Positions 3,449-64,000 of a stretch of 64,000 nt of DNA are shown here, piece after piece (positions within the stretch are counted from its first letter, which is position 1; every line of letters starts with the position of its first letter). The notes beneath the pieces were generated by a model. The model had not been told where the DNA came from. It did not search any database and saw only the letters and a program-made list of their open reading frames with translations. The DNA comes from an uncultured Spirochaetota bacterium. GTDB taxonomy: Bacteria; Spirochaetota; Spirochaetia; JAFGXN01. The position numbers and the translations under genes are program-made. Where the stretch lies: the NCBI GenBank assembly GCA_944388995.1, contig CALXKN010000008.1, positions 17,160 to 81,159 on the forward strand, given 5' to 3'.

Positions 3449-3781
3449 TTAATCTGTTTTTAAAGGAATCCACAGCTGGTAAGCGGTTTGTCCGTCCTCA
3501 AAAACCGTCCGGAAAACCGCCTGCTCAGGCCGGATTCCGATATTTTTATGAAGACAGAAGCTCTCCAAATCCGCCCGGTTTTGAGCGATAAAATCATCAG
3601 AAAGCGGTTCCCTCGACTGAAGAAAGACGTAAACGCCGCGGGGAATTGTCTTTCCGCCCTCCGGAGAACGGACGTAAAGCGCGGTTTCGCCGAAAAACCG
3701 GACGGTTTCCGCCGCGTTTTCATGACTTGCGGACGAGTAAAAAAAATCTTCGTACAAGCGCAGCCGTTTCCAGTTCAGCAT
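3449..3781 (-). CDS. Hypothetical protein (110 aa)
   Basis: ORF that overlaps pepD by 7 nt, suggesting translational coupling. No recognisable motif. Confidence 0.35.
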   Translation of the reverse strand: MLNWKRLRLYEDFFYSSASHENAAETVRFFGETALYVRSPEGGKTIPRGVYVFLQSREPLSDDFIAQNRADLESFCLHKNIGIRPEQAVFRTVFEDGQTAYQLWIPLKTD

Positions 3782-5196
3782 AGCGATAAAAGCATTTTCA
3801 GAACTTCGTAGGTACGGTCGGCAGAAGCGACGTCAAGAAATTCGCTGACCGAATGGACGTTTTCTGTCTGCGGTCCGAAGGAAATCATGTCAAGCCGCGG
3901 TTTCAGCGAAGCAAAGATTCCGCACTCCAATCCGGCGTGGATGACGGCAATCTGCGGCGGGCGGCCGGTTACTTTACGGAAGGCGGTCTGCGCCAGCTCT
4001 GACAGCGGCGATCGGGAAGCCGGTTCCCACATCGGATATTCGTCGGTTTTTTCGGCCTGAAAGCCGCAGGCGGCAAAAACGGCCGCGGTTTTTTCTTTGA
4101 CGGCGTTCAGTCCGCCGGCCGTCAGCGATCGGACGGAAACGGTCACCTGAACTTCTCCCCCTTCTTTGCAGCGGACAACCGCGACGTTGGCCGAAGTCTC
4201 CACCGTATCCGCAAAACGGCGGCTCATGGTTCCGACGCCGTTCGGCAGCGACGTTAAAAGCCGCAGAAGCGTTCCGCTTTCGTCAGCCGGAAAACATTCG
4301 GTTTCGGAAACCGGTGAAAGTCTGAATTCCGCTTCTTTCGGTAAAAATCCGGAAAGCCGCATCTGAAGTTCGGCCGCCGTCAGAGCGGTATTGACAACCG
4401 CCGACGAGCGCGACGGAATGACGTTGTGTTTGTCTCCGCCTTCAAAAGAAGCGATCCGAACGGGAGAGGTCCTGTTTACCTCCGCCAACGCTGCGGCGAG
4501 TGCGACAACCGCGTTCGGCCGGTTTTTACCGATGTCGCTTCCCGAATGACCGCCGGGAAGTCCGCTCAGTTCAATCCGGAAAAAACCCGCGGATTCTCCT
4601 TTTTCCCGTCTGATTTTCCGTCGGCCGCAAAACGTCGCGCCGCCGGCGCAGCCGACAATGATGACGCCGTCTTCTTCGGAATCCAGATTGATCAGCCGGT
4701 CGAAAGCAAGCGTTTCGGCGGACAGGGCGGCCGCACCGCAGAGACCTTCCTCTTCGCAGACGGTGAACAGCAGCCGCAGCGGCGGGTGAACGGCCTGCGG
4801 ATCATCGCATAACGCCAGCGCCATTGCCAGCGCTATGCCGTTATCGGCTCCCAACGACGTTCCGTCGGCCGAAAGCCGCTTTCCGTCGTCAATAACCGGA
4901 ATCGGATCGCGTTCAAAATCGACCGGCGAGGTTTCCGTTTTGACGCAGACCATGTCCATATGCCCCTGAATGAGGACGCCCGCATGCGTTTCAAAGCCGG
5001 CCGCCGCGGGAACGTCAATGCTCAGATTGCCGGCGCCGTCAACCGAATGCGCAAATTTTTTTTCTTCGGCAAACCGAATCAAATAACCGCGGATTTTTTC
5101 CTCCTTTCCGGACGGCCGCGGGATTTTCGCGATTTCCAAAAAGTAATCTTTCCAAGTCATCGTTCCGATTATACCGTTTTTTAAAAACGCGGACAA
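3775..5196 (-). CDS. pepD: Aminoacyl-histidine (Xaa-His) dipeptidase, M20 family
   Basis: 473 aa with M20 motifs (HMDMV, GADNGIALAMALAL). Length and motifs are typical of PepD. Confidence 0.8.
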   Translation of the reverse strand: MSAFLKNGIIGTMTWKDYFLEIAKIPRPSGKEEKIRGYLIRFAEEKKFAHSVDGAGNLSIDVPAAAGFETHAGVLIQGHMDMVCVKTETSPVDFERDPIPVIDDGKRLSADGTSLGADNGIALAMALALCDDPQAVHPPLRLLFTVCEEEGLCGAAALSAETLAFDRLINLDSEEDGVIIVGCAGGATFCGRRKIRREKGESAGFFRIELSGLPGGHSGSDIGKNRPNAVVALAAALAEVNRTSPVRIASFEGGDKHNVIPSRSSAVVNTALTAAELQMRLSGFLPKEAEFRLSPVSETECFPADESGTLLRLLTSLPNGVGTMSRRFADTVETSANVAVVRCKEGGEVQVTVSVRSLTAGGLNAVKEKTAAVFAACGFQAEKTDEYPMWEPASRSPLSELAQTAFRKVTGRPPQIAVIHAGLECGIFASLKPRLDMISFGPQTENVHSVSEFLDVASADRTYEVLKMLLSLC

Positions 5197-5300
5197 GCGG
5201 AGTTAAAAGAGAAAATCGGGAAAAAACGTCCGGAATTTCTGTTTTAAACCGGAAAATTTCCCCCGCTTGCAAGATTTACTTTAAAAAGGTATAGTCGGTT

Positions 5301-6020
5301 ATGGGCGAATTGTACATGGTGGCCACACCGATCGGAAATCTCGGTGACATTACGCTGCGCGCGCTTGAAACGCTGAAATCGGTCGATTTGATCGCGTGCG
5401 AAGACACCCGCCGCACGCTGCAGCTTTTAAACCGTTTTTCGATTGCCAAAAAACTGATCAGCTGCCGGGCTCAGAACGAAGCGGCCGCCGCGCAAACCGT
5501 CTGCCGCGCCCTGGAAGCGGGGCAGTCGGTGGCCTACTGCAGCGATGCGGGAACTCCCGGCGTCAGCGACCCCGGAGCGCGTCTGGCGCAGACCGTCCGC
5601 CGGAACGGTTTCCGCGTCGTACCGATTCCGGGAGCGTCGGCAGTTACTGCGTTAATCAGCGTCTCTGCAACGGAAAGTAAAGGCTTTCGATTTGAAGGCT
5701 TTCTCAGTCCGAAAGAAGGCCGCCGTAAACGACGTCTCGAAGAGCTGATGAACGGCGACGTTCCGTTTATTCTGTACGAATCTCCGTTCCGCATTATTAA
5801 ACTTTTGCACAACATAGCCGATACAGACAGTGAACGGCTTATTACCGTCGGCCGCGAACTGACGAAACAGCATGAAGAAATCGCCGAAGGAACGGCCGCT
5901 TCGATTCTGAATTTATTTGAATCGAGAAATATGATCAAAGGCGAGTGGGTTTTACTGATAAACGGAAAAAAAGAGTTAAAGTCGGAAATCAAAAAAACCG
6001 ATAATAAAAAAGAGAGGTAA
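5301..6020 (+). CDS. rsmI: 16S rRNA (cytidine1402-2'-O)-methyltransferase
   Basis: N-terminus MGELYMVATPIGNLGDITLRALETLKSVDLIACEDTRRT is the RsmI/tetrapyrrole-methylase-family signature. Confidence 0.85.
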   Translation: MGELYMVATPIGNLGDITLRALETLKSVDLIACEDTRRTLQLLNRFSIAKKLISCRAQNEAAAAQTVCRALEAGQSVAYCSDAGTPGVSDPGARLAQTVRRNGFRVVPIPGASAVTALISVSATESKGFRFEGFLSPKEGRRKRRLEELMNGDVPFILYESPFRIIKLLHNIADTDSERLITVGRELTKQHEEIAEGTAASILNLFESRNMIKGEWVLLINGKKELKSEIKKTDNKKER

Positions 6021-6022
6021 TC

Positions 6023-6304
6023 ATGTTGGGAAAAATCAACGGAATCAATCCAATTTCTAATACGACTCGAATCGAAGAAACGGTAAAAACGAAATCGGTT
6101 GCGGGATCCGATTCTATTTCGATTTCTTCCGATGCCGAAAAAATGAGCCGCCTTCACGCCCTGTGCGAAAAAGTAGCTCAAACTCCCGATATCCGCCAGG
6201 ACAAAATCGACGAGGTGATGAATCAAATGAAAAATCCGGACTTCATCAACGACAAGGTTTTATCCGTTGTTGCGGATAAGTTAATGGAGATTTTCAAAAT
6301 CTGA
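6023..6304 (+). CDS. flgM: Anti-sigma-28 factor FlgM
   Basis: 93 aa. C-terminal region (RQDKIDEVMNQMKNPDFINDKVLSVVADKLM) matches the FlgM sigma-28-binding helix pattern. Followed by a terminator. Confidence 0.6.
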   Translation: MLGKINGINPISNTTRIEETVKTKSVAGSDSISISSDAEKMSRLHALCEKVAQTPDIRQDKIDEVMNQMKNPDFINDKVLSVVADKLMEIFKI

Positions 6305-6331
6305 AAACCGGCTTTTGCCGGTTTTTTTTTA
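6302..6331 (+). terminator. Rho-independent terminator after flgM
   Basis: Hairpin aaaaccggc-tttt-gccggtttt followed by a T9 run. Confidence 0.75.
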
Positions 6332-6355
6332 TCTCCGGCGCGGTGAAAGAAAGGG

Positions 6356-6384
6356 TTGAAAAAACGAATTTTTCCGTCTATAAT
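6356..6384 (+). promoter_or_regulatory. Consensus sigma70-type promoter (TTGAAA-17 bp-TATAAT) abutting the nif3 start codon
   Basis: -35 TTGAAA at 6356-6361, 17-bp spacer, -10 TATAAT at 6379-6384. The ATG is at 6390, only 5 nt after the -10, implying a leaderless mRNA. Confidence 0.5.
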
Positions 6385-6389
6385 GCGTT

Positions 6390-7145
6390 ATGAAGTTGAA
6401 AGAGCTTTGCGCCTATTACGAATCGCTGCTGCGGATTTCCGAAACCGACGACATCAGCCTGAACGGACTTCAGGTCGGCGACGACGAGGCGGAAATCAAA
6501 ACCGTCGCGTTTGCCGTTGACGCGGCGAAGGAAACCATCGGAAAAGCGGCCGATGCGGGCGCCGATTTGCTCTTTGTTCATCACGGTCTGTTTTGGGGGA
6601 AGCCGTACCCGCTGACCGGCTCCGTTTACAGACGTTTTGATTTGCTTTTCCGGCGGCCGCTGGCGTTGTTTGCCGTTCATCTTCCGCTGGATCTGCACCC
6701 GACGCTCGGCAACAACGCCCGGCTGGCGCAGACGCTCGGCCTGCGGAATCTCCGCCCGTTCGGCGAATACCGCGGCGTTAAAATCGGTTTCAAAGGGGAG
6801 TGGAGCCAACCGCTTTCAGTTGACGACGTCCTCGGCCGTTTGGGGCTGACCCGCGGCGACTGCCTGAAAGTGTACGGCTTCGGCAAAAAAGAAGTTCGGA
6901 ACGCCGCCGTCATTTCGGGCGGAGCGGTCGACGAACTCTCCCAAGCGGTCGCCGAAAACCTCGATTTGTACATCACGGGCGACGCCGGACACGAGATTTA
7001 CCACTTCTGCAAAGAATCGCATATCAATATGCTGAGTATCGGTCACTACGCAAGCGAAACTTACGGCGTGAAAGCCGTCGCCGCCCAAACGGAAAAAGAC
7101 TGCGGTTTGAAAACGCTGTTTATCGATTGTCCGACCGGACTGTAG
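6390..7145 (+). CDS. Nif3-family dinuclear metal centre protein (GTP cyclohydrolase 1 type 2 homologue, YqfO/YbgI)
   Basis: 251 aa with Nif3-type motifs (…LLFVHHGLFWG…, HxxxE). Confidence 0.75.
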   Translation: MKLKELCAYYESLLRISETDDISLNGLQVGDDEAEIKTVAFAVDAAKETIGKAADAGADLLFVHHGLFWGKPYPLTGSVYRRFDLLFRRPLALFAVHLPLDLHPTLGNNARLAQTLGLRNLRPFGEYRGVKIGFKGEWSQPLSVDDVLGRLGLTRGDCLKVYGFGKKEVRNAAVISGGAVDELSQAVAENLDLYITGDAGHEIYHFCKESHINMLSIGHYASETYGVKAVAAQTEKDCGLKTLFIDCPTGL

Positions 7146-7153
7146 GAGATTTT

Positions 7154-7795
7154 ATGGGAATCATTGCTAAAAAGAAAAAAGACAAAAAAAGTTTTCAAAC
7201 CGTTTTGAAGGAATTTCCGTCCGAAGTGAAAAAAAATTGGAAAATGAAGACGGCGATTTTGATGATTGCACCGATTGCGCTGCTGATCGATCAGATTACA
7301 AAATCGTTGGTCGTCCGCTTCATTCCGCTTTACGGTTCGCTTTGGGGCGATCCTTACGAAGGGATTCTGCGCATTATTCACGTCCGCAATACGGCGATCG
7401 CTTTCGGTTTGGGACGCGGTTTTGCCGACGAGGTGAAAGCGGTTCTGTTTATTCTGCTGCCGCTGATCATCGTCGTCGCGCTGATTGTTTATTCACTTTA
7501 CAAAAACGAACAGCCGCTTTATCAGCGGATTGCGTTTGCGCTGATTATCGGCGGCGGTTTGGGAAATCTGACGGACCGGATTTTCCGGCCCGGAAACGTC
7601 GTTGATTTTGTTGACACGGTTTGGTTCGGTATCGACGCGCTGCGCGATATTCCGCTTCTCAAGCTGCTGTCGTATGAACGGTGGCCGACCTGGAATTTTG
7701 CCGACGCCTGCGTTGTCGCCGCCGTCGCCATTCTTTTGGTCGGAATGATTGCCGAAGAAATTCAAATGAAGAAAAAAAAGAAACGGCCGGCTTAA
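7154..7795 (+). CDS. lspA: Lipoprotein signal peptidase II
   Basis: Motifs GGGLGNLTDR and WPTWNFADACV (FNxAD). GGAG RBS 6 nt upstream of the ATG at 7154. Lys-rich C-terminal tail. The ORF-track start at 7127 overlaps nif3 and is less likely. Confidence 0.75.
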   Translation: MGIIAKKKKDKKSFQTVLKEFPSEVKKNWKMKTAILMIAPIALLIDQITKSLVVRFIPLYGSLWGDPYEGILRIIHVRNTAIAFGLGRGFADEVKAVLFILLPLIIVVALIVYSLYKNEQPLYQRIAFALIIGGGLGNLTDRIFRPGNVVDFVDTVWFGIDALRDIPLLKLLSYERWPTWNFADACVVAAVAILLVGMIAEEIQMKKKKKRPA

Positions 7796-8073
7796 ACGCC
7801 GACTGTTTCCGTTAACGCCGCAGTTTCCGCTTGAAATTCAGCAATCAGTTTTTCTTTTTGCTTTTTTGTCAGCTTTTTCAGGCGCGCCTCTTCCTTTAAT
7901 GCTTCCGGCCAGCCGGCTGTTTCGCGTAAAAAAACGACAGACAGCGGCTGACGGCCGCGGGTGTATTTGGCGCCTTTTCCGCTGCGGTGCTCTTCAAGCC
8001 GCGCCTTCCAGTCAGCCGCGGCTCCGGTGTAAAACGTTCCGTCACCGCAGGCCAGAATGTAAACGAATGCCAT
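7792..8073 (-). CDS. GIY-YIG nuclease-domain protein (UPF0213 family)
   Basis: MAFVYILACGDGTFYTGAAADWKARLEEHRSGKGAKYTRGR is the GIY-YIG signature. Confidence 0.8.
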   Translation of the reverse strand: MAFVYILACGDGTFYTGAAADWKARLEEHRSGKGAKYTRGRQPLSVVFLRETAGWPEALKEEARLKKLTKKQKEKLIAEFQAETAALTETVGV

Positions 8074-8076
8074 TTT

Positions 8077-51324: not shown

Positions 51325-53007
51325 GTGGAGTTTATGGGAAGTTTTTCTGTTCGGAAACGGAAACAGTTCGTTTGTTTTTCTGTATTAAAAGCGTTGACAG
51401 CAGCAGCCGTCTTAACGGTCATGTCGTGCGGCGGAGCCGTAGCTGTCGAAAATGTCAAAGTCACGCCGACGGCACTGTCGCTGGGCATCGGCGAAACGGC
51501 GGTTTTAAAAGCGGAAGTGGAACCGGCAGACGCCTCCGTGAACGCGGTGCTTTGGAGCGTTACGCAAGGAACGGCCGTCACGGTGGACGGATACGGCAAG
51601 GTCACGGCAATGACAGCCGGTACGGCAACCGTCACAGCGGAAACGGTCGACGGCGGTAAAACGGCTTCGTGTACGGTGACGGTCGGCAGTATCAGCGACG
51701 GAACAGGCGGAACAGACGGAACAGGAGAAACAGGCGGAACGGTGGCCGTTGAATCCGTTACGCTTGACCGTTCGTCGGTGACGCTGGGAGTCGGCAACTC
51801 GGTCACGCTGCAGGCAACGGTCGAACCGGCGGAAGCAGCCGCCACGGTGGTCTGGAGTCTGGCTTCCGGTGACGGCATTGTGACGGTCGACCAGAAAGGA
51901 CGTATTACGGCAAAAGCGATCGGTGCGGCAACTGTGGCTGTCGAAGCCGGCGGTGAAACGGCCACCTGTCTGGTTACGGTCATTCGGGAAGGTGTCATTG
52001 CCGATTTGGCTTTTATTGACGCGGTTGAAAGAGATATGCAATCAACTTGGGGCCTTAACGACGGTTGGGTTAAAGAAATTGACGGAACCGTACGGATGAA
52101 TTGGCGAAATATGAAAATCGTTAAAGAGGTTACAGAATTGTACTTGAGTAATGAAAATCTTTCTTCTTTGGACGGAATCGAATATTTTACCGGTTTGGAA
52201 TTGTTATCCTGCAGCAATAACCGGCTGACAGCATTGGATGTCGGAAATTTGCACAATTTAAAAACATTGTATTGCGGTAACAATCAGATAGAAACAGGGA
52301 AGCTGATTTTACCGCCGCAGCTTACCTATTTGAGCTGCTCTGATAACCGGTTGGAACAACTGGATGAAACGGTATTACCGGCCGGTCTGACGGAATTGTA
52401 TTGCCAAAATAATCCGCTGACAAAATTGGAAGTGGGAACGCTTACGAAACTGACAAAATTGGACTGTGCCGGAGGACAATTAACACGATTATCGGTAAAC
52501 GGATTAACCGAATTGACCTATCTGGCCTGCGGTTTTAACAATCTTTCTCATCTGGATATAGCAATGGGTAGAGAAGAAATCAATTCAAATCTGGAAACAT
52601 TGTACTGTCAGTATAATAATTTGGCTTATATAAACGTATATGAAATAAAGACATTGAAAGTTCTTGTCTGTGACAATAATAAAATCAGCAGTTTGAACCT
52701 ACCGTACTCGACTTCCACAGAGCAAAGTCCGTTGTACTATCTGACATGTTCCGGAAATAATATAAGCCGGCTGGATGTGGCAAAGTACATAAAGCTCAAC
52801 GCTCTGGATTGCGAAAAAAATGAAATAACCGAATTAAATATTACTAAGCTGACCGGTTTAACATCAACATCTTTTTTCCGCTGCGGAGGGCAGAGAAATG
52901 AAAGCAATCAAATGGTTTTACATCTGACAAGTGATCAGAATACTTTATGGACAAAGAATTGGAAAAAATATAACAACGGTGTCGAAACCCGAATCGCAGA
53001 GCCGTAA
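51325..53007 (+). CDS. Surface lipoprotein with three bacterial Ig-like (BIG2) domains and C-terminal leucine-rich repeats
   Basis: Lipobox VMSCGG. Three ~85-aa BIG2 repeats (VxVTPxxxSLxxGET…). About 12 LRRs (LxxLxCxxNxLTxLDV). Alternative start at 51334. Confidence 0.75.
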   Translation: MEFMGSFSVRKRKQFVCFSVLKALTAAAVLTVMSCGGAVAVENVKVTPTALSLGIGETAVLKAEVEPADASVNAVLWSVTQGTAVTVDGYGKVTAMTAGTATVTAETVDGGKTASCTVTVGSISDGTGGTDGTGETGGTVAVESVTLDRSSVTLGVGNSVTLQATVEPAEAAATVVWSLASGDGIVTVDQKGRITAKAIGAATVAVEAGGETATCLVTVIREGVIADLAFIDAVERDMQSTWGLNDGWVKEIDGTVRMNWRNMKIVKEVTELYLSNENLSSLDGIEYFTGLELLSCSNNRLTALDVGNLHNLKTLYCGNNQIETGKLILPPQLTYLSCSDNRLEQLDETVLPAGLTELYCQNNPLTKLEVGTLTKLTKLDCAGGQLTRLSVNGLTELTYLACGFNNLSHLDIAMGREEINSNLETLYCQYNNLAYINVYEIKTLKVLVCDNNKISSLNLPYSTSTEQSPLYYLTCSGNNISRLDVAKYIKLNALDCEKNEITELNITKLTGLTSTSFFRCGGQRNESNQMVLHLTSDQNTLWTKNWKKYNNGVETRIAEP

Positions 53008-55218: not shown

Positions 55219-55254
55219 GCCGCCATAGTAAAAGAAAGCCGCCGTCCTGTCAAC

Positions 55255-55421
55255 CTTTTCGTTTTTTGGGCGCGCGCCCCTGCGGGGCGCCGGGCTTTCC
55301 GCTGCAATTCGCAGCCTCCCTGCGCCTTCACCGCGGCAAAGCTGCCGCTTTGCCCTGCGCCTTCTCTCCGTCGGCAGCTCATTTCCGCTTCAATCCCTCG
55401 CGCCTTCGGCAAGGTGCTGCG
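55255..55421. repeat. GC-rich 166-bp direct repeat, copy 1
   Basis: Near-identical (1 indel) to 56426-56591. About 70% GC with internal hairpins (ggcaaagc-tgcc-gctttgcc; gggcgcgcgcccc…ggggcgcc). Confidence 0.9.
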
Positions 55422-55515
55422 GAAATCGGCATTTTATTGTTTTAGTGTAAAAATGGGAACTTCCGAAAACAGTCAACCGTTTTTCGGAAAAATAACTGCC
55501 CTAAACGTATTTTTG

Positions 55516-55524
55516 TGTTATAAT
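55516..55524 (+). promoter_or_regulatory. Extended -10 (TGtTATAAT) upstream of the MNT/HEPN pair
   Basis: tgtTATAAT at 55516-55524, about 90 nt before the MNT start. Confidence 0.4.
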
Positions 55525-55616
55525 AACTCCAATAAAAATTTCGTATGGCAAACACAGCAAAAGCAAAACCCGAAAAAAACGCCGATTAAAACCGGAGCGG
55601 AAGATTCGGGAGAAAC

Positions 55617-55922
55617 TTGGAGCGATCGGGTATGAGCTGTAATCTTCCTGAAAGCGTGGTTTTCGATATTGAACGATTCGCAAAGAAAAACAAGATTAAA
55701 AAGGTCGTTCTGTTTGGCTCCCGCGCGAGGGGCAATCATTCGGAACGAAGCGACATTGATTTGGCGGTCAGCGGTGGAAACGCGGCGGATTTTTATTACG
55801 ACGTCAATGAAGAAGCGCGGACTCTTTTAATTTTTGATGTGGTCAATCTGGACGGACCGGTCAGCGGCGAACTGCGCGCCGAAATAGAAAAGGACGGAGT
55901 TTTACTCTATGAAGAAATTTGA
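55617..55922 (+). CDS. Minimal nucleotidyltransferase (MNT) antitoxin-type protein
   Basis: GSRARG…SDIDL motif (Pol-beta NTase fold). Confidence 0.8.
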   Translation: MERSGMSCNLPESVVFDIERFAKKNKIKKVVLFGSRARGNHSERSDIDLAVSGGNAADFYYDVNEEARTLLIFDVVNLDGPVSGELRAEIEKDGVLLYEEI

Positions 55923-56304
55923 CAATTTTTGCAAAGCGCTTTCGAATTTGCGGGAAGGATTGCAGCTTGAAGAACCGTATTCTGTCGTCGAACGGACGGG
56001 CATCATCGGGCTGTTTGAAATTTGCTTTGAGCAGGCATGGAAGCTGATGAAAGCGGTTTTGGAAGAGCACGGCAGGACAATCGACCGCGTCGGTTCCCCG
56101 AAAGTTGTCATTCAGCTTGCATATCAGAGCGGGATGATTGACGACAGCGAAAAATGGCTTTCCCTGCTCAGAGATCGAAATATCCTTGCTCACACCTACA
56201 GCGACGAAGATTCGCTTGCCGTGATTCGAACGTTAAAGACGGACTACGAGCCCTTGTTCGCCACCCTCAAAGAAGAGATTGAAACGCGCCGGCTTTCGGC
56301 GTAA
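55909..56304 (+). CDS. HEPN-domain toxin-type protein (HI0074/nucleotidyltransferase-substrate-binding family)
   Basis: Rx4-6H motif (RDRNILAHTY). Overlaps the MNT gene by 14 nt. Confidence 0.75.
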   Translation: MKKFDNFCKALSNLREGLQLEEPYSVVERTGIIGLFEICFEQAWKLMKAVLEEHGRTIDRVGSPKVVIQLAYQSGMIDDSEKWLSLLRDRNILAHTYSDEDSLAVIRTLKTDYEPLFATLKEEIETRRLSA

Positions 56305-56425
56305 AGCGGAGGCGCGAAACAACTGAGTCCGGTATGAAAGTAGAAGAAATGGGAGCGAAAACTCTTTCAATCGCCACTGATTCTGCCAGCATCTTTACAT
56401 TTGGCTCCGCCCCCCCTCGCTGAAT

Positions 56426-56591
56426 CTTTTCGTTTTTTGGGCGCGCGCCCCTGCGGGGCGCCGGGCTTTCCGCTGCAATTCGCAGCCTCCCGCGCCTTCA
56501 CCGCGGCAAAGCTGCCGCTTTGCCCTGCGCCTTCTCTCCGTCGGCAGCTCATTTCCGCTTCAATCCCTCGCGCCTTCGGCAAGGTGCTGCG
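56426..56591. repeat. GC-rich 166-bp direct repeat, copy 2
   Basis: See copy 1. Preceded by a C7 tract (56410-56416). Confidence 0.9.
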
Positions 56592-56655
56592 AAAGAGGCG
56601 TCTGAAAACTATAAATATGAGAACAATCTCATTTAAACCTCATCCATTTTTATCT

Positions 56656-59541
56656 TCAGCAGAAATGCGCCATATCGCGCGGATAATACTTGCAGTCGTG
56701 CAGTTCCGTGTCGTCAAGCCCCAGCGCCTTTACCAGGGCAGCAGACGCTATGCACCAGTACCCGCGGTACTGGTTCTTTTTCAAGTCAAATTTTGTTATA
56801 AGCCCATCAGTCTTCGTGTGAATCCACTGTCTTTTAAGATACCGTTTTAACCGCTCAACAGCCGCCGCTTTATTCTCTTTTGAAAGCAGTACCACCTCAT
56901 ATACCGCATTGGAATATTTCGGACAGCAGAGCTTTTCCGTGCGTATCTGCCAGGATGAGTCCAGCGTCTGCATAAGGAAATCCAGATAAAAATCCCGCTG
57001 TTCCGATTTTTGTAACAATTTTCGATAGTCATCCAGAAATTCAGTCCTGTTAAAAAGCATAATCAAGTACAGAACAGTTTCCATATCTTCATAATTATCA
57101 TTGCCGTCCTGTGCGTCTATCAAATGACGCAAAATCAGGTCTACTTCGGGAAGCAGCTCATGCATATCTAGCCCTAAGGAATATCCTGTATAAAATTTGT
57201 AAAATGCATAAGTATATATTTGATATTTAAACGCTCTTATGTCCGATTCTGCCTGATGTTCATCAGTCTCAATATTATGATGATGATACGTTTGCAGTAT
57301 TTCTTTCAGCTTTTGGGAATCTTTCTTGAATCTTTCGTCAAAATATTCCTGGGGTTTGACTTTATCCCTCATCATTCTTACCCGGGGCGGAAGTTTTTCC
57401 CGCTCCTCCTCCGTAAGAAATTGCGACAGTTCAACTAAAAAGGGCTCTATAAACTCCGACATGAGTTTCGCTTTATTCCCGGCTGAGTGATCATAAGGTA
57501 TTTCAATTGCCGATGTCCGCCGTTTCTCATCCTTCCACAAGCGTCCTATTTTAATAAATGAACCGCCTTTCTCAAATATGTACAACGATATAATCAGTGT
57601 GCAGTCTTCATACTCACATTCTATATAATCTTGCTCCCCCAAGCAGTAATCTCTGTAGGTAAGATTCCTCAAAGTGGTTATTATCCAGGGTATCCACTCT
57701 TTTTTGATGACAACACTATCCCATGACTGCCATGACCCGGTACCGAAACGGCTGCCGGTTCTGGTGTTGATTCGTAGTTCGCCTTTGGGACTCCAGGGCG
57801 TGGGAAGTTTTTTCCGTTCTTCTTCAGGAAGAAATTGTGACAAGGCCACTAAGAAGGGTTCTATAAATTCCGACATGATTTTCAAGTCGTTGTCCGATTC
57901 TTCAAAATTAAATTCGAAACGGGTATAACGCCACTTTGATGTCAGGGTATAACTCTGCTCATTTTTTGCATGCCAAGGAAAATAAGGTATTTCAAGTGCC
58001 GGCGATATCTTCTTTTCATCCTTCCACATGGGAAATATTTTTATATAGGAATACCCATCCCCTATAGGACAGATACTTAATGTTAATTGGCACGTTCCCC
58101 ATTTATTTATGATGCTTTCAACTCCTGTTTGATAATTATCAACACTAAGATTTCTCAATGTGCTTATTATCCAGGGTATCCGGTTTTTTTGTATAACAAT
58201 ACTTTTCTGCTGCCCGCCGCCGAATGTACCGGTTCTTTTTCCGTTAATCCGTAATTCATCGTTATCTAATTCCTCGAAGCTGTATTCAAAATCGGCATTC
58301 AGAGTTTTTTTGCTTTGATATTTTGTTATCTTCTCTATTTTGGCTACTATCGATTCGTCGTCCGACTTATCGGTTTCGCCTGCATACCAATCTTTGCCTT
58401 CGAGCCATACCCCGAACCAGAAAGGAAGATCCCCCCAAGGTCTTTGACAGAGTTCTTTCTTTTCGTTGACACTCCAGGGGGGCGACAGTTTACCCCTTTC
58501 TTCTTCCGTGAGAAACTGCGACAATGCAACCAGAAACGGCTCTATAAATTCCGACATTAATTTTGTTTCTTTCCGGGATACATAGGGTATTTCAATATTC
58601 CATGAACTCTTATTTTCATTTTTCCAGACAGGATAAATTTTGATATAGGAATAATCAAAGGGTACTACATTTATAATAAAACTTAAATTACAGTAACCGT
58701 ATTCATATACGAGAGTTTGCGGGGTGTTATAATCGTCGATAGTGGCATTTCTTAGTGTGGTAATGATCAAAGGTATCCACGCTTTTTTTATGATAATACT
58801 TTCCCATTGTCCCCTGCCGAATGAATCTGTTCGCTTTGCATTGATTTCCAACTCGTCATCATTTAATTCTTCATTGTCAGCTTTTTCCTCAAAATAAAAT
58901 TCGAAATGAACATTCCCGCCCTTACTGATCAGGTATTCTTTTTCTGCCAGTCCGTATTGTGTTATACCGGTCATTGCTTTGAAAAAATTGAGGGAACCGC
59001 TTTCCTTATCGGCAAAAATGATGTTCTGTTTTTTGTTTTCCCTCCAGGGAGGCGGAAGTTGTGTTCTTTCTTCTTCGGTAAGGAATTGTGCCAATTCAAC
59101 CAAAACAGGTTCGATAAATTCCGCCATTAACCTGCTTTTATCCCAGGGTAGATATGGTATTTCAATAAACGGTGTCGTTTTTTCCTTCGGTTCCTTCCAT
59201 ATGGGCATTATTTGAAGGGTCGCATAATCTTTGGCAGATGGTAAAAACTCCAGATTGACTTGACATTCTTCATATTCGTGAACGATATGTCTGTTCCAAA
59301 TCCCTTCCGGAAAGTTGATGTCGTAATCCTCAAAAGGAAGGGTTCTCAGTGTGGTGATAATCCGGGAAATCCACGCTTTTTTTATGACGATACAGTAATA
59401 CAAAGGCATACGTTCCGCTTCATCCAACAATGGAAAGGTTATTTTTTCGAAAATCCGTATTTCGTCGTTGTCCGATTCCTCAAAATGAAATTCAAAGGTA
59501 TCGGATATTTCGGCATCTCCCCTTCTGCCTGTAATGAACAT
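56656..59541 (-). CDS. Novel 961-aa protein: four tandem ~180-aa repeats plus C-terminal ~210-aa domain (paralogue of the next gene)
   Basis: Repeat hallmarks FEFxFEESDNDELRI…KRTxxFGxGxWxSxxIKKxWIPxIITTLRN…YIKIxPxWKxE…IEIPY…SEFIEPFLVxLSQFLTEEERxKLPPPW occur four times. The C-terminus is about 65% identical to the 59781-60401 product. Confidence 0.7.
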   Translation of the reverse strand: MFITGRRGDAEISDTFEFHFEESDNDEIRIFEKITFPLLDEAERMPLYYCIVIKKAWISRIITTLRTLPFEDYDINFPEGIWNRHIVHEYEECQVNLEFLPSAKDYATLQIMPIWKEPKEKTTPFIEIPYLPWDKSRLMAEFIEPVLVELAQFLTEEERTQLPPPWRENKKQNIIFADKESGSLNFFKAMTGITQYGLAEKEYLISKGGNVHFEFYFEEKADNEELNDDELEINAKRTDSFGRGQWESIIIKKAWIPLIITTLRNATIDDYNTPQTLVYEYGYCNLSFIINVVPFDYSYIKIYPVWKNENKSSWNIEIPYVSRKETKLMSEFIEPFLVALSQFLTEEERGKLSPPWSVNEKKELCQRPWGDLPFWFGVWLEGKDWYAGETDKSDDESIVAKIEKITKYQSKKTLNADFEYSFEELDNDELRINGKRTGTFGGGQQKSIVIQKNRIPWIISTLRNLSVDNYQTGVESIINKWGTCQLTLSICPIGDGYSYIKIFPMWKDEKKISPALEIPYFPWHAKNEQSYTLTSKWRYTRFEFNFEESDNDLKIMSEFIEPFLVALSQFLPEEERKKLPTPWSPKGELRINTRTGSRFGTGSWQSWDSVVIKKEWIPWIITTLRNLTYRDYCLGEQDYIECEYEDCTLIISLYIFEKGGSFIKIGRLWKDEKRRTSAIEIPYDHSAGNKAKLMSEFIEPFLVELSQFLTEEEREKLPPRVRMMRDKVKPQEYFDERFKKDSQKLKEILQTYHHHNIETDEHQAESDIRAFKYQIYTYAFYKFYTGYSLGLDMHELLPEVDLILRHLIDAQDGNDNYEDMETVLYLIMLFNRTEFLDDYRKLLQKSEQRDFYLDFLMQTLDSSWQIRTEKLCCPKYSNAVYEVVLLSKENKAAAVERLKRYLKRQWIHTKTDGLITKFDLKKNQYRGYWCIASAALVKALGLDDTELHDCKYYPRDMAHFC

Positions 59542-59780
59542 TGCATCTACCAGTTTAAGAAAAGCTTTTGTATCAGCGGATTGGGCAGATTCTTCATGTT
59601 GATCGTCTTCTTTATTATATTTTATTCCGACTCCTAAGGAACGCAGCCGTCATATCGAAGGGGTGCAACGGTATGACGGCCAACACTCCGCTTTCACGCG
59701 GTGGTCTTATGCTGTTCATGTCGATACCGGACCGCTTCCGACACAACCGAATGAAGTTTTCCGATTTTCCGAATCAATTT

Positions 59781-60401
59781 CTAACAGAAATGGGTCATAT
59801 CGTAGGGATAGTATTTACAGTCTTTCAGTTCCGTATCGTCAAGTTTGAGGGCTTTTACCAAAGCGGCGGCGGCGATGCACCAATACCCCCGGTACCACCC
59901 TATTTTCAGATCCCGGTTGGTTATAACACCTTCGGTTAATGACATAAACCACTGCCTTTTAAGATACCTCTTTAACCGCTGGACGGCTTCCGCCTTGTTT
60001 TCTTTTGACAGCATTACCACCTCGTATACCGAATTGGTCTCTTTGGGGCAACGAAGTTTTTCCGTACTTATCTGCCATGTGGAGTCTACTATCTGTACAA
60101 GATAATCCAGGTAAAAATCCCGCATTTTCGATTTTTGTAATAACTCCTTATATTCATCCAGAAATTCTGTCCGGTTAAAAAGAATGATTAAGTATATAAT
60201 CATTTCCATATCATCATAACCTCTGTCCCTTTCTCTCGTTGTATCAATCAAATTTCTTATGATAAGGTCTACTTCGGGAAGCAGCTCATTCATACCAAGC
60301 CCCAGGGAATAGCCTGCATAAAATTTACAAGCTGCTTCCATATATATGTGATATTTAAACGACCATACATTATATTTTTCCGGATGGCTTATTCTCTTCA
60401 T
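59781..60401 (-). CDS. Stand-alone 206-aa paralogue of the C-terminal domain of the 961-aa protein
   Basis: YxGYSLGLxMxELLPEVDLIxRxLID…CKYYPxDMxHFC is shared with the 961-aa protein. Confidence 0.7.
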   Translation of the reverse strand: MKRISHPEKYNVWSFKYHIYMEAACKFYAGYSLGLGMNELLPEVDLIIRNLIDTTRERDRGYDDMEMIIYLIILFNRTEFLDEYKELLQKSKMRDFYLDYLVQIVDSTWQISTEKLRCPKETNSVYEVVMLSKENKAEAVQRLKRYLKRQWFMSLTEGVITNRDLKIGWYRGYWCIAAAALVKALKLDDTELKDCKYYPYDMTHFC

Positions 60402-60643
60402 ATTTACTCATCCGTTCAGCAAGATCAGACGCATCCTTATTATATCTTTCCCTAAAATATTCTTCTGTTTTTATGGTGTCTCTCATCTGTTATTCCTTGT
60501 GTATTTTGTAAATTTTTGGTTTATTCTCGTTATACATAACATTGCCATTTTCATCAAGTTGGTAATATGTTACTTTTCCTCCCTTCGGAACGCCTGCGGC
60601 GTGGCTACAATCCTTTGTGCGAGAAGATTTTTATCAATGGTGT

Positions 60644-60701: not shown

Positions 60702-60929
60702 TTATTCAAAAGTTATTACCATATGCGAACCTGCCGTTTTTTCGGTTACTTTCTGTATAATCTCTTTTTTGTCATCTTCAGTTAATGGCTCGTTTTCTGG
60801 AACAAGCCAATTTTTCATTGAACTTTTATAACAGACAAAACCGCCTACTATCATTTCGCCTGCGATTCTCGCAGTTCTGCCATCGAGTTCTACATCTATG
60901 TATGTGTTTGTTCCGGTTATTTTTGTCAT
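60702..60929 (-). CDS. 75-aa hypothetical protein (partner of DUF600-like gene in duplicated module)
   Basis: MTKITGTNTYIDVELDGRTARIAGEMIVGGFVCYK…. A truncated second copy lies at 62300-62353. Confidence 0.5.
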   Translation of the reverse strand: MTKITGTNTYIDVELDGRTARIAGEMIVGGFVCYKSSMKNWLVPENEPLTEDDKKEIIQKVTEKTAGSHMVITFE

Positions 60930-60938
60930 ATATTAATC

Positions 60939-61271
60939 CTATGCATTATCCCATTCGTCTTGAAGAGCCTGATCCCATTCAAAGGTCATATCAAAGTGAC
61001 CGTTCTTTTCAAGGGTGTAAATAGCTTTGTTCCATTGTGCAAAATGTAACTCTTTTGCACTATTATGAAATTTTATTAAATCAATTTTTGTTTCTCGATT
61101 AAGTGCTAAGTTTAAAGCATTTTTCCATTCTCCATTAATCTGATATTTTGCATTCGTACCAATATATTTATCACTACATTCAATATTCAGTTCAATTTTA
61201 TCCCAAGAGGAATCAATACTATCATTCAATTGCGAACCAATATTTTTATATATATCTTCAATATTTTTCAT
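60939..61271 (-). CDS. DUF600 (YezG/EsaG)-like putative immunity protein, copy D
   Basis: N-terminus IEDIYKNI…SSWDKIEL and C-terminus WNKAIYTLEKNGHFDMTFEWD fit the DUF600 pattern (…EWEKVYLY…, W.NL.L..ER.G.F.IDYDY). AGGAG RBS overlaps the upstream nuclease-fragment stop. Confidence 0.5.
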   Translation of the reverse strand: MKNIEDIYKNIGSQLNDSIDSSWDKIELNIECSDKYIGTNAKYQINGEWKNALNLALNRETKIDLIKFHNSAKELHFAQWNKAIYTLEKNGHFDMTFEWDQALQDEWDNA

Positions 61272-61282
61272 AAATACTCCTA

Positions 61283-61657
61283 TTAATTTAAGAAGAACAA
61301 ATTTTCTGTTTTTTCTATTTTTCCATCCGATGTTTTTATAATGTATGTTACATCAAAATCTGTCGGTCTTAGATTATCAGCATAGTTTATTTTTATATCA
61401 ACTTCAACCTTTTTTCCCTCTGAAAGTGCATCGTTCCATTTTTTTTCCATGGTTTTCCATTCACCATTATTTAGTGTGGCGGTTTGTGGAACATAATTTA
61501 TTTGTTCTCCAGGACCATTGAAAATTCTTGCAATAATATGTCCGCCCTGGTCATCACCTTTAATACCATCTTTTATATCAACTGATTTTCCTTGTTGATA
61601 AACATTTCTGTCTTTTGTTTCAAGTTTTAATTCTCCGCTTACTTTGTTTTACAACTA
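61283..61657 (-). pseudogene. Orphan/pseudogenised nuclease toxin C-terminal domain (Serratia NucA-like bba-Me / Endonuclease_NS_2, EsaD/YeeF-type)
   Basis: Minus-strand frame encodes …GDDQGGHIIARIFNGPGEQINYVPQTATLNNGEWKTMEKKW… (compare Serratia DRGHQ…NITPQKSDLNQGAW). It has no start codon and in-frame TAG (61655-61657) and TAA (61649-61651). An upstream fragment (…DADYEDIVAALNRFGTIASKRK) in the same frame extends to 61731. Confidence 0.6.
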
Positions 61658-61731: not shown

Positions 61732-62262
61732 CTAACTGTCCCAGATTTCCTTAAATTTTAAACCTTTGATACTGTTTTTCTTAACAATATCTATAAACTC
61801 ATCTGTTACAAAATAATCTCGAATAATTAATTGATTTTGTAGTTTAACTTGAAAAAGAGGTGGATAATTGTTTTCCTTAAAATAATATTGCTCAACACCT
61901 AAAATATCATTCTCAAAATACTTATATTTAGTTTTTTTTCGATCTAAGCAGTCCAAAACAGTTAAATTATTTAATAGTACAAAATCGTCATTAAGCGGAA
62001 CAAATCTTATATTTATTTGAGAAATGTCAGAAAGTACTGCCATAAATTTTTTATTTATGAAGAATCCTCTACAATCATAACATTCACAAATATCCCCTGC
62101 AGGATTATTAGAATCTCTATCGTATTCTAATTGAAAATCAGAAGGAATGCTTATTTCTATACCTTTATTAAACTGACGTAAAATTTTTCTATCAGTTTCT
62201 TCGTTTTTTATATAGCATCCTTTGTAATTATCAATATCTGTTTCTAAAATGTATATTTTCAT
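61732..62262 (-). CDS. 176-aa hypothetical protein (AT-rich, possible immunity-type protein)
   Basis: ORF with a G8 tract serving as its RBS. No known motif. Confidence 0.45.
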   Translation of the reverse strand: MKIYILETDIDNYKGCYIKNEETDRKILRQFNKGIEISIPSDFQLEYDRDSNNPAGDICECYDCRGFFINKKFMAVLSDISQINIRFVPLNDDFVLLNNLTVLDCLDRKKTKYKYFENDILGVEQYYFKENNYPPLFQVKLQNQLIIRDYFVTDEFIDIVKKNSIKGLKFKEIWDS

Positions 62263-62362: not shown

Positions 62363-62686
62363 CTATGCATTATCCCATTCGTCTTGGAGAGTTTGATCCC
62401 ATTCAAATGTCATATCAAAATGACCATTCCTTTCAAGAGAGTAAACAGCTTTGTTCCATTTATGCTCAGGCGACATAGATTCTTGAAGTTCAAAAACGCT
62501 ATCCATTAAAGTATTTACAGTTAATAAAGGAAACTTTAATTCTTTTTTTTCAAACGATGATAAAGTATATTCTGCCTGAAATGAACACATTTTATTTAGA
62601 CTTGATTCTATTTTTACAGTCACTTTTTCCCATTTACCGGAAATATTATCTTGAACCGCCTTGCCTAATTCTTTATATAAATCCAT
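62363..62686 (-). CDS. DUF600 (YezG/EsaG)-like putative immunity protein, copy B
   Basis: C-terminus WNKAVYSLERNGHFDMTFEWDQTLQDEWDNA is near-identical to copy D. Confidence 0.5.
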   Translation of the reverse strand: MDLYKELGKAVQDNISGKWEKVTVKIESSLNKMCSFQAEYTLSSFEKKELKFPLLTVNTLMDSVFELQESMSPEHKWNKAVYSLERNGHFDMTFEWDQTLQDEWDNA

Positions 62687-62732: not shown

Positions 62733-63842
62733 TTATTTCTCTTTATTTAAAATAAACAGATACTCAGAGACGTGTATATTACGGTTATTCAAATTTCTGC
62801 TTCCCCGGAATGTATTATAAGTCATTTCAACGGTTTTCAGTTTTCCGTAGTGTTCCAGCATTGTTTTCATTTGCTCAAAAGTAATAAATCCTTCAGAATT
62901 ATAAGAGATAATGACAAACTTTGAATCAATTTTATCTATGATTTTTTCCATGGATTTTAAGGCTGAATAAGGTTTGTTGAATTCCGAGCGGTTCCAATCC
63001 TGAGTTATCCCTGAAACTTTACTGATTTCAGCATCCAGCCTGTTCTTTATGATAAGATTCAGCATAAAATAATTTGAACCATAGGGATGCTGGTTATACG
63101 GGGGATCCAGATAAGTAATATCTATTTTTTTTAATTCCCCGGCAAGTTCCACAGCATCTTTTTTATAGATTTTAACCTTTGAATTGAAATTGCTTAAAAC
63201 CGGCTCTTTCAGTTCTATTTTTCCAAAAATGCGGGTTAAAGCGTTTTTCCCGGCAGCGCCGAAACATCCGATTCCGGTATTTTTGTCCTTGTAAAACCCT
63301 TTGAAAACCCCGCTTGTATTGACATGAACCGAAGCCTCCGTTACGAGCGGCGCTAAAAAAAATTTTTTCATGTCTTCTTCCTGCACCACTTTATCAATCA
63401 GACTGCGGTAAGTGTCGATTAACAGAGCGTTCTCATGGGTATAAAAAACCCTTTCTCCTCTTTGAATATTTCCGTCATCCTGAGGGGCATAATTTTTTGT
63501 GATAATTCTCGGTTCTTTTTTGCTGCGGCACATTTCTTCTATTATTGATTTATATTCCCGCCATTTTTCATGCGGAAAATCTTTTTTGTCAGTCAGATAG
63601 CATTCATTGATGAGGCGGGAATATTCTTCCAGATCATTGGCAATTAAAACACTGCTGTATTTTTTCAGCATCCGGGCAACAATTCCCGAACCGGAGAAAA
63701 TATCCGCACAAACAAGTTTTTCTTTTCCCAATAAACCGGCAATTTTTTTGACTTCTTCTTCTATATTCCTGATAAGCTGCCGTTTGTTCCTGATATAAGT
63801 AATGATCTGTGCAGTAAGATATTCTTTATTTTCTTCTTTCAT
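62733..63842 (-). CDS. DNA N6-adenine methyltransferase, D12 class (Dam-like, alpha type)
   Basis: Motif I DIFSGSG and motif IV DPPY in alpha-class order. 369 aa. Confidence 0.7.
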   Translation of the reverse strand: MKEENKEYLTAQIITYIRNKRQLIRNIEEEVKKIAGLLGKEKLVCADIFSGSGIVARMLKKYSSVLIANDLEEYSRLINECYLTDKKDFPHEKWREYKSIIEEMCRSKKEPRIITKNYAPQDDGNIQRGERVFYTHENALLIDTYRSLIDKVVQEEDMKKFFLAPLVTEASVHVNTSGVFKGFYKDKNTGIGCFGAAGKNALTRIFGKIELKEPVLSNFNSKVKIYKKDAVELAGELKKIDITYLDPPYNQHPYGSNYFMLNLIIKNRLDAEISKVSGITQDWNRSEFNKPYSALKSMEKIIDKIDSKFVIISYNSEGFITFEQMKTMLEHYGKLKTVEMTYNTFRGSRNLNNRNIHVSEYLFILNKEK

Positions 63843-63942: not shown

Positions 63943-64000
63943 TCCGTACACACCCATTGATGTTGTCAAAGAACTCCTTCTGTACGGAGATAGGGGGAGG
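63943..64000. repeat. 57-bp exact repeat, copy 2 (runs into window end)
   Basis: Identical to 60644-60700. Confidence 0.9.

Follow-up and report, generated by a model that had tools for sequence, protein, structure and literature searches.

A gene near the end of the window, a 64,000-nucleotide (nt) stretch of contig CALXKN010000008.1 from an uncultured Spirochaetota bacterium, encodes a protein of 961 amino acids (aa) as called from its first ATG codon (56656..59541, minus strand; open reading frame (ORF) list and homologue comparison). All features described below lie on the minus strand unless a plus sign is given. We found that this protein contains four diverged copies of a unit of about 150 aa, followed by a C-terminal domain (aa 725-961, 56656..57369) that matches the PoNi family of immunity proteins. 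Gene calls on 11 independent metagenome contigs, which come from different projects and samples, yield a 961-aa product identical to this one. A four-unit gene with 98% identity exists in the GTDB reference metagenome-assembled genome (MAG) of Candidatus Treponema excrementipullorum (L016), and a whole-protein search for related loci returned one species only. An earlier note on this DNA had described a giant protein without a catalytic motif; the absence of a catalytic motif holds, while 961 aa is not a giant length. Inspection of the N-terminus by eye (no predictor was run) reveals no signal peptide, and the protein would be cytoplasmic.

The four units show 44-57% pairwise aa identity. A profile made from all four recovers them at aa 10-167, 207-357, 412-584 and 536-722 with 171-241 bits each, and an EFIEP motif occurs four times in the protein (aa 141, 331, 558 and 696). 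At the DNA level, the units are 62-83% identical over local stretches, with a start-to-start spacing of 414-681 nt, and the longest exact match between any two of them is 19 nt. Tandem Repeats Finder reported no array inside the gene because the copies are too diverged, and the units were compared by profile and BLAST in its place. Unit 1 (aa 10-167, 59041..59514) gives the strongest profile match, 241 bits, and is by its alignment a putative sPC4L/PUR-like domain of the immunity type. The linker between units 1 and 2 (aa 168-206, 58924..59040) resembles, in a comparison by eye, the C-terminal tail of stand-alone homologues (..IxxxFVxEIDPxDYF). Unit 2 (aa 207-357, 58471..58923), defined by its profile match, is the unit that we modelled, and the alignment places a Trp-rich linker (aa 358-411, 58309..58470) between it and unit 3. 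The units differ from one another mainly in a central segment between the first helix and the sixth strand of the predicted fold.

Units 3 and 4 are interleaved. Profile positions 1-117 of unit 3, which include every strand and the first of its two helices (aa 412-530, 57952..58308), are followed by the displaced first strand of unit 4 (profile positions 1-17; aa 536-552, YTRFEFNFEESDND, 57886..57936), which profile and alignment both place ahead of the last helix of unit 3 (profile positions 117-149; aa 553-584, LKIMSEFIEPFLVALSQFLPEEERKKLPTPW, 57790..57885). The remainder of unit 4 (profile positions 18-149; aa 585-722, 57376..57789) comes last. The four diverged repeats recognised by the earlier note are confirmed, but units 3 and 4 are not simply tandem. 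The interleaving is kept in all 23 homologues that we collected. It may represent a segment-swapped double domain, in a fold whose halves embrace each other. Alternatively, an ancestor with five units could have undergone in-frame deletions, of which the interleaving would be the scar.

We found no Pfam match for the repeat unit, either with the 961-aa protein (E <= 0.1) or with 14 members of the family (E <= 1), and no sequence match in the PDB. Neither the 961-aa protein nor the 206-aa protein encoded next to it has a match in NCBIfam. Among 1.84 billion representatives, an exhaustive search with the profile yielded only 43 proteins, including stand-alone ones of 130-196 aa, and a word-indexed search with the family alignment yielded 158 clusters at 90% identity, none of which is named or carries a Pfam domain. 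The AlphaFold model of unit 2, based on a 17-sequence alignment, has a predicted local distance difference test score (pLDDT) of 83.9 and a predicted template modelling score (pTM) of 0.83. It consists of strands at residues 6-12, 24-32 and 41-46, a helix at 47-59, strands at 69-75, 78-85, 92-100 and 110-114, and a final helix at 119-137. In a Foldseek search with this model, Whirly and human PURA I-II rank first with a probability of 0.98-0.99, and the structures most similar to the unit are those of Pur-alpha, Whirly and PC4 proteins, at 8-12% sequence identity. The predicted fold of the unit is PUR/Whirly-like, that is, sPC4L (Pfam clan CL0609), a fold in which a module of four strands and a helix occurs twice. 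A 2022 survey (PMC9424270) described two immunity families, sPC4L-Imm1/2, with a three-stranded first sheet, and assigned the CdiI structures 4NTQ_B and 5FFP_A to the sPC4L superfamily. Thus, there is a precedent for the use of this scaffold in toxin neutralisation. With pI values of 4.6-6.8, the units range from acidic to neutral, as would suit the binding of basic, nucleic-acid-directed toxins more than that of nucleic acids.

The C-terminal domain is, by its profile matches, a PoNi domain (PF08928/PF08929, DUF1910/DUF1911), a member of a known family of immunity proteins against PoNe DNases. The region at aa 725-957 scores 64.9 bits against PF08929 (PoNi_C; cut-off 25) and, marginally, 22.7 bits against PF08928 (PoNi_N; cut-off 22.4). 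It also has weak sequence matches to solved structures annotated as "DUF1911 domain-containing protein". PoNe DNases of the PD-(D/E)xK type are bound and neutralised by PoNi proteins, which contain DUF1911 and often DUF1910 too; in about 90% of cases a PoNe gene has a DUF1911 gene behind it, and PoNi genes are also recognised as orphans (Jana et al. 2019, PMC6688995). The family corresponds to the one listed as Imm-PA2201 by Zhang et al. 2012 (PMC3482391), where the motifs entered for it are GxWxxE and YPxD. The YPxD motif is present in both PoNi copies of the window (YYPRD and YYPYD). The counterpart of GxWxxE is GYWCIA, in which G and W are kept and Ala replaces Glu. The earlier note had regarded both domains of the protein as uncharacterised, and this applies to the repeat unit but not to the C-terminal domain. 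Membership of a well-known housekeeping family, another outcome considered in that note, is rejected on the Pfam results.

The second PoNi copy is encoded by the neighbouring 206-aa ORF, which lies 239 nt upstream of the 961-codon ORF on the same strand. The two copies are 68% identical over 201 aa (E 7e-93), in agreement with the relationship seen by the earlier note. That note had taken the 206-aa ORF for a stand-alone free paralogue; it is instead the downstream part of a 235-aa PoNi gene, from which a 2-bp deletion near 60393 has cut off the first 31 codons. An alignment with orthologues shows that the frameshifted gene spans 59781..60486 and is split into a 38-aa ORF (60370-60486) and the 206-aa ORF (59781-60401). 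The 206-aa product scores 72.5 bits against PoNi_C (cut-off 25), and PoNi_N is not detected in it, the N-terminus having been split off by the frameshift. Intact 235-aa orthologues, 94-95% identical, exist on L013 and L018, and the gene calls on L002-L005 split the free PoNi gene in the same way as in the window. In the large gene, the fusion junction falls on the residue that had been the initial Met of a PoNi gene: …PPRVRM-MRDKVKPQEYFDERF (…PPRVRM|MRDKVKPQEYF) corresponds to MRDTVKTEEYFRERY of the intact free gene. Among the window ORFs and their Pfam matches there is no PoNe toxin gene upstream of PoNi, and the neighbours are immunity genes.

All 23 homologues of the large protein end in a PoNi domain and contain either four units (962-988 aa) or three (713-754 aa, without unit 1); the shorter ones come from short contigs and are fragmentary. 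In homologues with 66-99% identity, the reading frame, the order of the units and the conserved core residues are all maintained. The units cluster by position across the homologues, indicating that the duplications are older than the divergence of these proteins. Exact matches of at most 19 nt likewise mean that the repeats are old and weakly recombinogenic, and the only copy-number difference seen is four units versus three. The earlier proposal that the copy number would be recombinogenic is therefore not borne out. On the other hand, the C-terminal half of PoNi occurs in at least three versions among the homologues. In one of them (P0005), it is 85-92% identical to the free paralogue of the window and 62-72% identical to the fused domain. 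Alternative cassettes are likewise seen at the centre of unit 4. These mosaic PoNi halves and unit 4 cassettes fit recombination between immunity genes.

The earlier note had asked whether homologues lie next to toxin genes, and the stand-alone units on other contigs are indeed linked to such genes. On three independent contigs, L006, L007 and L012, the start codon of the unit overlaps the stop codon of a gene for a protein of about 787 aa with central hydrophobic helices, which is in turn preceded by a PF13699 (eCIS_core/DUF4157) gene. The last ~260 aa of this protein behave like the tip of a polymorphic toxin. L012 carries a second, orphan copy of the C-terminus of the ~787-aa protein (92% identical), followed by another unit. 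L014 and L015 carry a 92-aa remnant with 70-76% identity to the final 90 aa of the ~787-aa protein, and the stop of this remnant and the start of the unit overlap. In P0180 a unit is joined to an orphan toxin C-terminus. Other stand-alone units lie in immunity arrays. A unit ends the series AHH toxin-Imm11-Imm74 on L010 and L011, and on L013 a 172-aa unit directly follows the intact PoNi gene that is 95% identical to the free copy of the window. Unit fragments are joined to an Imm11-like protein of the window type in P0055 and P0060. The toxin-linked stand-alone units (P0024/P0066) are 50-65% identical to the window units and nest among them in a distance tree. Because stand-alone units follow the C-termini of ~787-aa proteins or their remnants, or lie in immunity arrays, we conclude that the repeat unit is a putative immunity domain, whose primary partner would be the ~260-aa C-terminal domain. 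As such, it is a predicted uncatalogued immunity family of an already known fold. The ~260-aa domain itself has only 25 close homologues, the closest named one coming from a Clostridia MAG (P0179).

Several further observations concern these contigs. L006, L007 and L012 share a four-gene set (for example, L012 511-7588) encoding a ~1125-aa protein, a PF13699 protein (235-256 aa), the ~787-aa protein with transmembrane helices and the unit, which is possibly an undescribed toxin delivery module. On L014, the toxin remnant and its unit lie between two more members of the family, both highly diverged from it (147 and 177 aa, at 6280-6723 and 7542-8075), so arrays of separate unit genes exist too. 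Two candidates for toxins were rejected. The 263-266-aa ORFs of L018 are not orphan toxin cassettes according to BLAST, and the NADase_transloc proteins upstream of units on L008 and L009 are not accepted as the cognate toxin, as that domain is C-terminal and no toxin domain is recognisable in these proteins.

In the window, the large gene is preceded by a series of other immunity genes. Upstream of the frameshifted PoNi gene lie an Imm74 gene (60702..60929, 75 aa; PF15603, 57.6 bits, cut-off 27.1) and a YezG-like gene (60939..61271, 110 aa; 20.8 bits, just under the Pfam cut-off). An Imm11-like gene (61732..62262, 176 aa; 19.8 bits, below the Pfam cut-off) and a second YezG-like gene (62363..62686, 107 aa; PF04634, 23.4 bits, cut-off 21.7), whose product is 44% identical to the first YezG-like protein, follow further upstream. 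A gene for a D12-class N6-adenine DNA methyltransferase (62733..63842; PF02086, 65 bits) forms the upstream edge of the island, close to the end of the window at 64000. Directly upstream of the first YezG-like gene, a 55-aa ORF (61283..61450) is the remnant of an Endonuclea_NS_2 toxin domain, corresponding to its C-terminal end (PF13930, 27.7 bits, cut-off 27, positions 90-130 of 132). The poly-immunity character suggested by the earlier note agrees with this array of Imm74, two YezG-like, Imm11-like and PoNi genes with a nuclease-toxin remnant.

The GC content is 28-34% over 60.5-63 kb and 38-43% in the large gene, versus 44-53% in the flanking housekeeping genes. This low GC content suggests a foreign origin of the Imm74, YezG-like and Imm11-like genes. 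No intact toxin gene was found among the ORFs and Pfam matches of the 64-kb window, and tblastn with the ~787-aa toxin detected no copy in it. No recombinase, integrase or mobile-element gene lies beside the island within the window, to whose end the island extends, and no tRNA gene is located near its border within the window. L013, L017 and L018 hold the same families in other orders (PoNi 88-95%, Imm74 95-97%, YezG-like 89% and Imm11-like 40% identical, with unit fragments), indicating that the island is mosaic and variable. The 40% value is that of a 180-aa L018 gene located after an AHH toxin cassette. We regard the large gene as the last member of what is, by gene content and composition, a low-GC, horizontally assembled, toxin-less polyimmunity island of Candidatus Treponema excrementipullorum.

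The other side of the large gene also varies. A pair of MNT-HepT type nucleotidyltransferase/HEPN toxin-antitoxin genes (55617-56304, +) lies in the window region 55252-56594, flanked by direct repeats of 173 nt (55252-55424 and 56423-56594, 98% identical). Contig L005 has one copy of the repeat and no such pair, and the pair is therefore an insertion/deletion polymorphism. Downstream of the large gene, L016 carries ORFs of 234 and 396 aa (3564-5483), resembling, by eye, a deoxyribose-phosphate aldolase and a phosphopentomutase, where the window has the toxin-antitoxin pair and a peptide-binding protein. Thus, the flanks of the island differ between strains. An unrelated surface protein with Big_2 and leucine-rich repeats is encoded at 51325-53007 (+); the 5' half of its gene has a GC content of 51-53% and overlaps long antisense ORFs.

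Together, the domain content of the protein, the modelled fold of its unit, the linkage of stand-alone units to the toxin domain in genomes and the make-up of the island point to a cytoplasmic polyimmunity protein, made of four sPC4L-fold immunity domains of an uncatalogued family and a PoNi domain. We give this reading a probability of roughly 0.75. Each domain would act by binding, and so blocking, the C-terminal toxic domain of a protein that competing bacteria deliver. PoNe-type PD-(D/E)xK DNases would be the target of the PoNi domain, and the four units would block variants of the unclassified ~260-aa toxin domain carried by membrane-associated proteins of about 787 aa that neighbour PF13699 genes. 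Since the units differ most in their central segment, four copies may widen the range of toxin variants that are covered, and the protein could serve as a polyvalent toxin trap. A bolder extension is that the unit and the ~260-aa domain form an undescribed toxin-immunity pair with a new toxin fold or activity, and that units 3 and 4 constitute an obligate segment-swapped double domain. We consider this extension speculative and rather doubtful. If it were true, insertion of the first strand of unit 4 ahead of the last unit 3 helix would create a composite surface for binding, and thereby a new design of polyvalent immunity from PUR-like modules.

Several points weigh against a polyimmunity protein. 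The linkage of units to toxin genes comes from about ten inspected neighbourhoods of stand-alone units. The ~260-aa domain has no Pfam, NCBIfam or PDB sequence match and its AlphaFold model is unusable (pLDDT 48); because no family is recognisable and the model failed, the label "toxin" derives from architecture alone. As to binding, we infer the interaction of the units with toxins, as well as the identity of these toxins and the expression of the protein. The Foldseek matches of the unit 2 model are weak (E about 1e-2, TM score about 0.4), and the interleaving of units 3 and 4 may not be compatible with two folded domains. Finally, the locus in this strain may be decaying or poorly expressed, because the ancestral ATG start codon has become ATA and the adjacent PoNi gene is frameshifted.

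The last point leads to the alternative that the gene is a decaying relic, a once-functional fusion that this strain has ceased to express and that persists in a degenerating island only for want of deletion. The start codon is ATG in the reference MAG (L016) and in P0003, but ATA (59623-59625) in the window and on L002-L005. The 2-bp frameshift next to it and the toxin remnant nearby would fit such decay, as would the promoter scans; in these, as in the terminator scans, sites were no commoner than in shuffled sequence. However, an AGGAG sequence is kept 6 nt upstream of the ATA codon, and the next in-frame ATG occurs 28 codons downstream, before the start of unit 1. The intact frame of 961 codons and the identity of the protein across samples argue for function, and so does the conservation of frame, unit order and core residues in the homologues. 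We therefore judge a relic to be unlikely, although the ATA codon and the frameshift leave some room for it. It is considerably less probable that the units are true PUR/Whirly domains binding single-stranded DNA or RNA, with a role in regulation or in shielding DNA from nucleases and without any binding of toxins. The best structural matches, Pur-alpha, Whirly and PC4, all bind single-stranded DNA or RNA, and Borrelia Pur-alpha among them indicates that spirochaetes have PUR proteins; protection of DNA could even fit the fusion to an anti-DNase domain. Yet neither PurA nor any other Pfam family is matched even at E = 1, and the pI values noted above are those of acidic to neutral proteins. 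Moreover, stand-alone units are found at the stop codons of polymorphic C-terminal domains or their remnants and in immunity arrays, and the same fold is documented in immunity proteins.

An assembly artefact, in which the repeats would represent a mis-joined or inflated array, had also been raised in the earlier note. Several contigs end close to the island, and the region upstream is hard to assemble. Nevertheless, copies with 62-83% nt identity and no exact match above 19 nt are too diverged to confuse assemblers, and the reference MAG has the four-unit gene. We reject this explanation because exactly the same 961-aa product is found on the 11 independent contigs, and it retains practically no weight. 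A polyimmunity protein with four unit domains and one PoNi domain is the reading that we prefer.

If this reading is right, the known genes of interbacterial conflict gain an uncatalogued immunity family, comprising about 160 clusters at 90% identity and only 43 of 1.84 billion representatives. A toxin domain that is likewise uncatalogued is indicated as the likely partner of this family. The idea that the PUR/Whirly-like scaffold has been reused for toxin neutralisation is supported, and gut Treponema would possess polyimmunity islands that are variable and horizontally assembled, much as in Bacteroidales. Annotation of such islands should improve once the unit has a family model. The four-unit protein would also be a handy reagent for determining how far one polypeptide broadens toxin resistance.

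The window genes can be compared with several known systems. Like PoNi/Imm-PA2201 proteins, the C-terminal 237 aa of the large protein and its neighbour score above the Pfam thresholds and have the YPxD motif; the window copy differs in being fused behind four other domains without a PoNe gene upstream, and the free copy is frameshifted. The units resemble sPC4L-Imm1/2 and the CdiI proteins 4NTQ_B and 5FFP_A (CL0609, PMC9424270) in their predicted double module of strands plus helix with a three-stranded first sheet, a comparison made by fold description and not by sequence. They would also share with sPC4L-Imm1/2 an immunity role in polymorphic toxin loci. In contrast, sPC4L-Imm1/2 go with BetaH toxins of Gram-positive bacteria, whereas the neighbours of the units are ~787-aa proteins, PF13699 genes and AHH/Imm arrays. 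Pur-alpha, Whirly and PC4 have the Whirly-like fold predicted for the unit, but differ by the low sequence identity of 8-12% without a Pfam match, by the acidity of the units and by a context of toxin and immunity genes rather than regulatory genes. The island further resembles the AID clusters of gut Bacteroidales (bioRxiv 10.1101/471110), as both are orphan immunity arrays in gut bacteria, atypical in composition and variable between strains. Unlike the AID clusters, it belongs to Spirochaetota, has no recombinase or mobile element beside it within the window and shows no tie to effectors of the type VI secretion system.

The closest parallel is with the polyimmunity proteins, in which tandem copies of one domain are combined with unrelated domains, and with the polyimmunity loci described by Zhang, de Souza, Anantharaman, Iyer and Aravind in 2012 (PMC3482391). 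Treponema is named there among immunity-rich taxa that have an excess of immunity genes. The window shares with the cases described there the tandem copies of one domain together with an unrelated domain in a single polypeptide, as well as a toxin-less, heterogeneous array of immunity genes. Imm74 and Imm11 are given as typical members of such loci, and both types are present in the window island, although the Imm11-like match is below the cut-off. On the other hand, the repeat unit lies outside the families listed for polyimmunity proteins in that work (such as SUKH, SuFu, Imm13 and Imm33), and combinations with Imm-PA2201/PoNi are not among the fusions that we noted there. Two of the window copies are also interleaved, not simply tandem as in the proteins described. 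The polyimmunity strategy is thus already known, while the domain family that is repeated in this protein is new.

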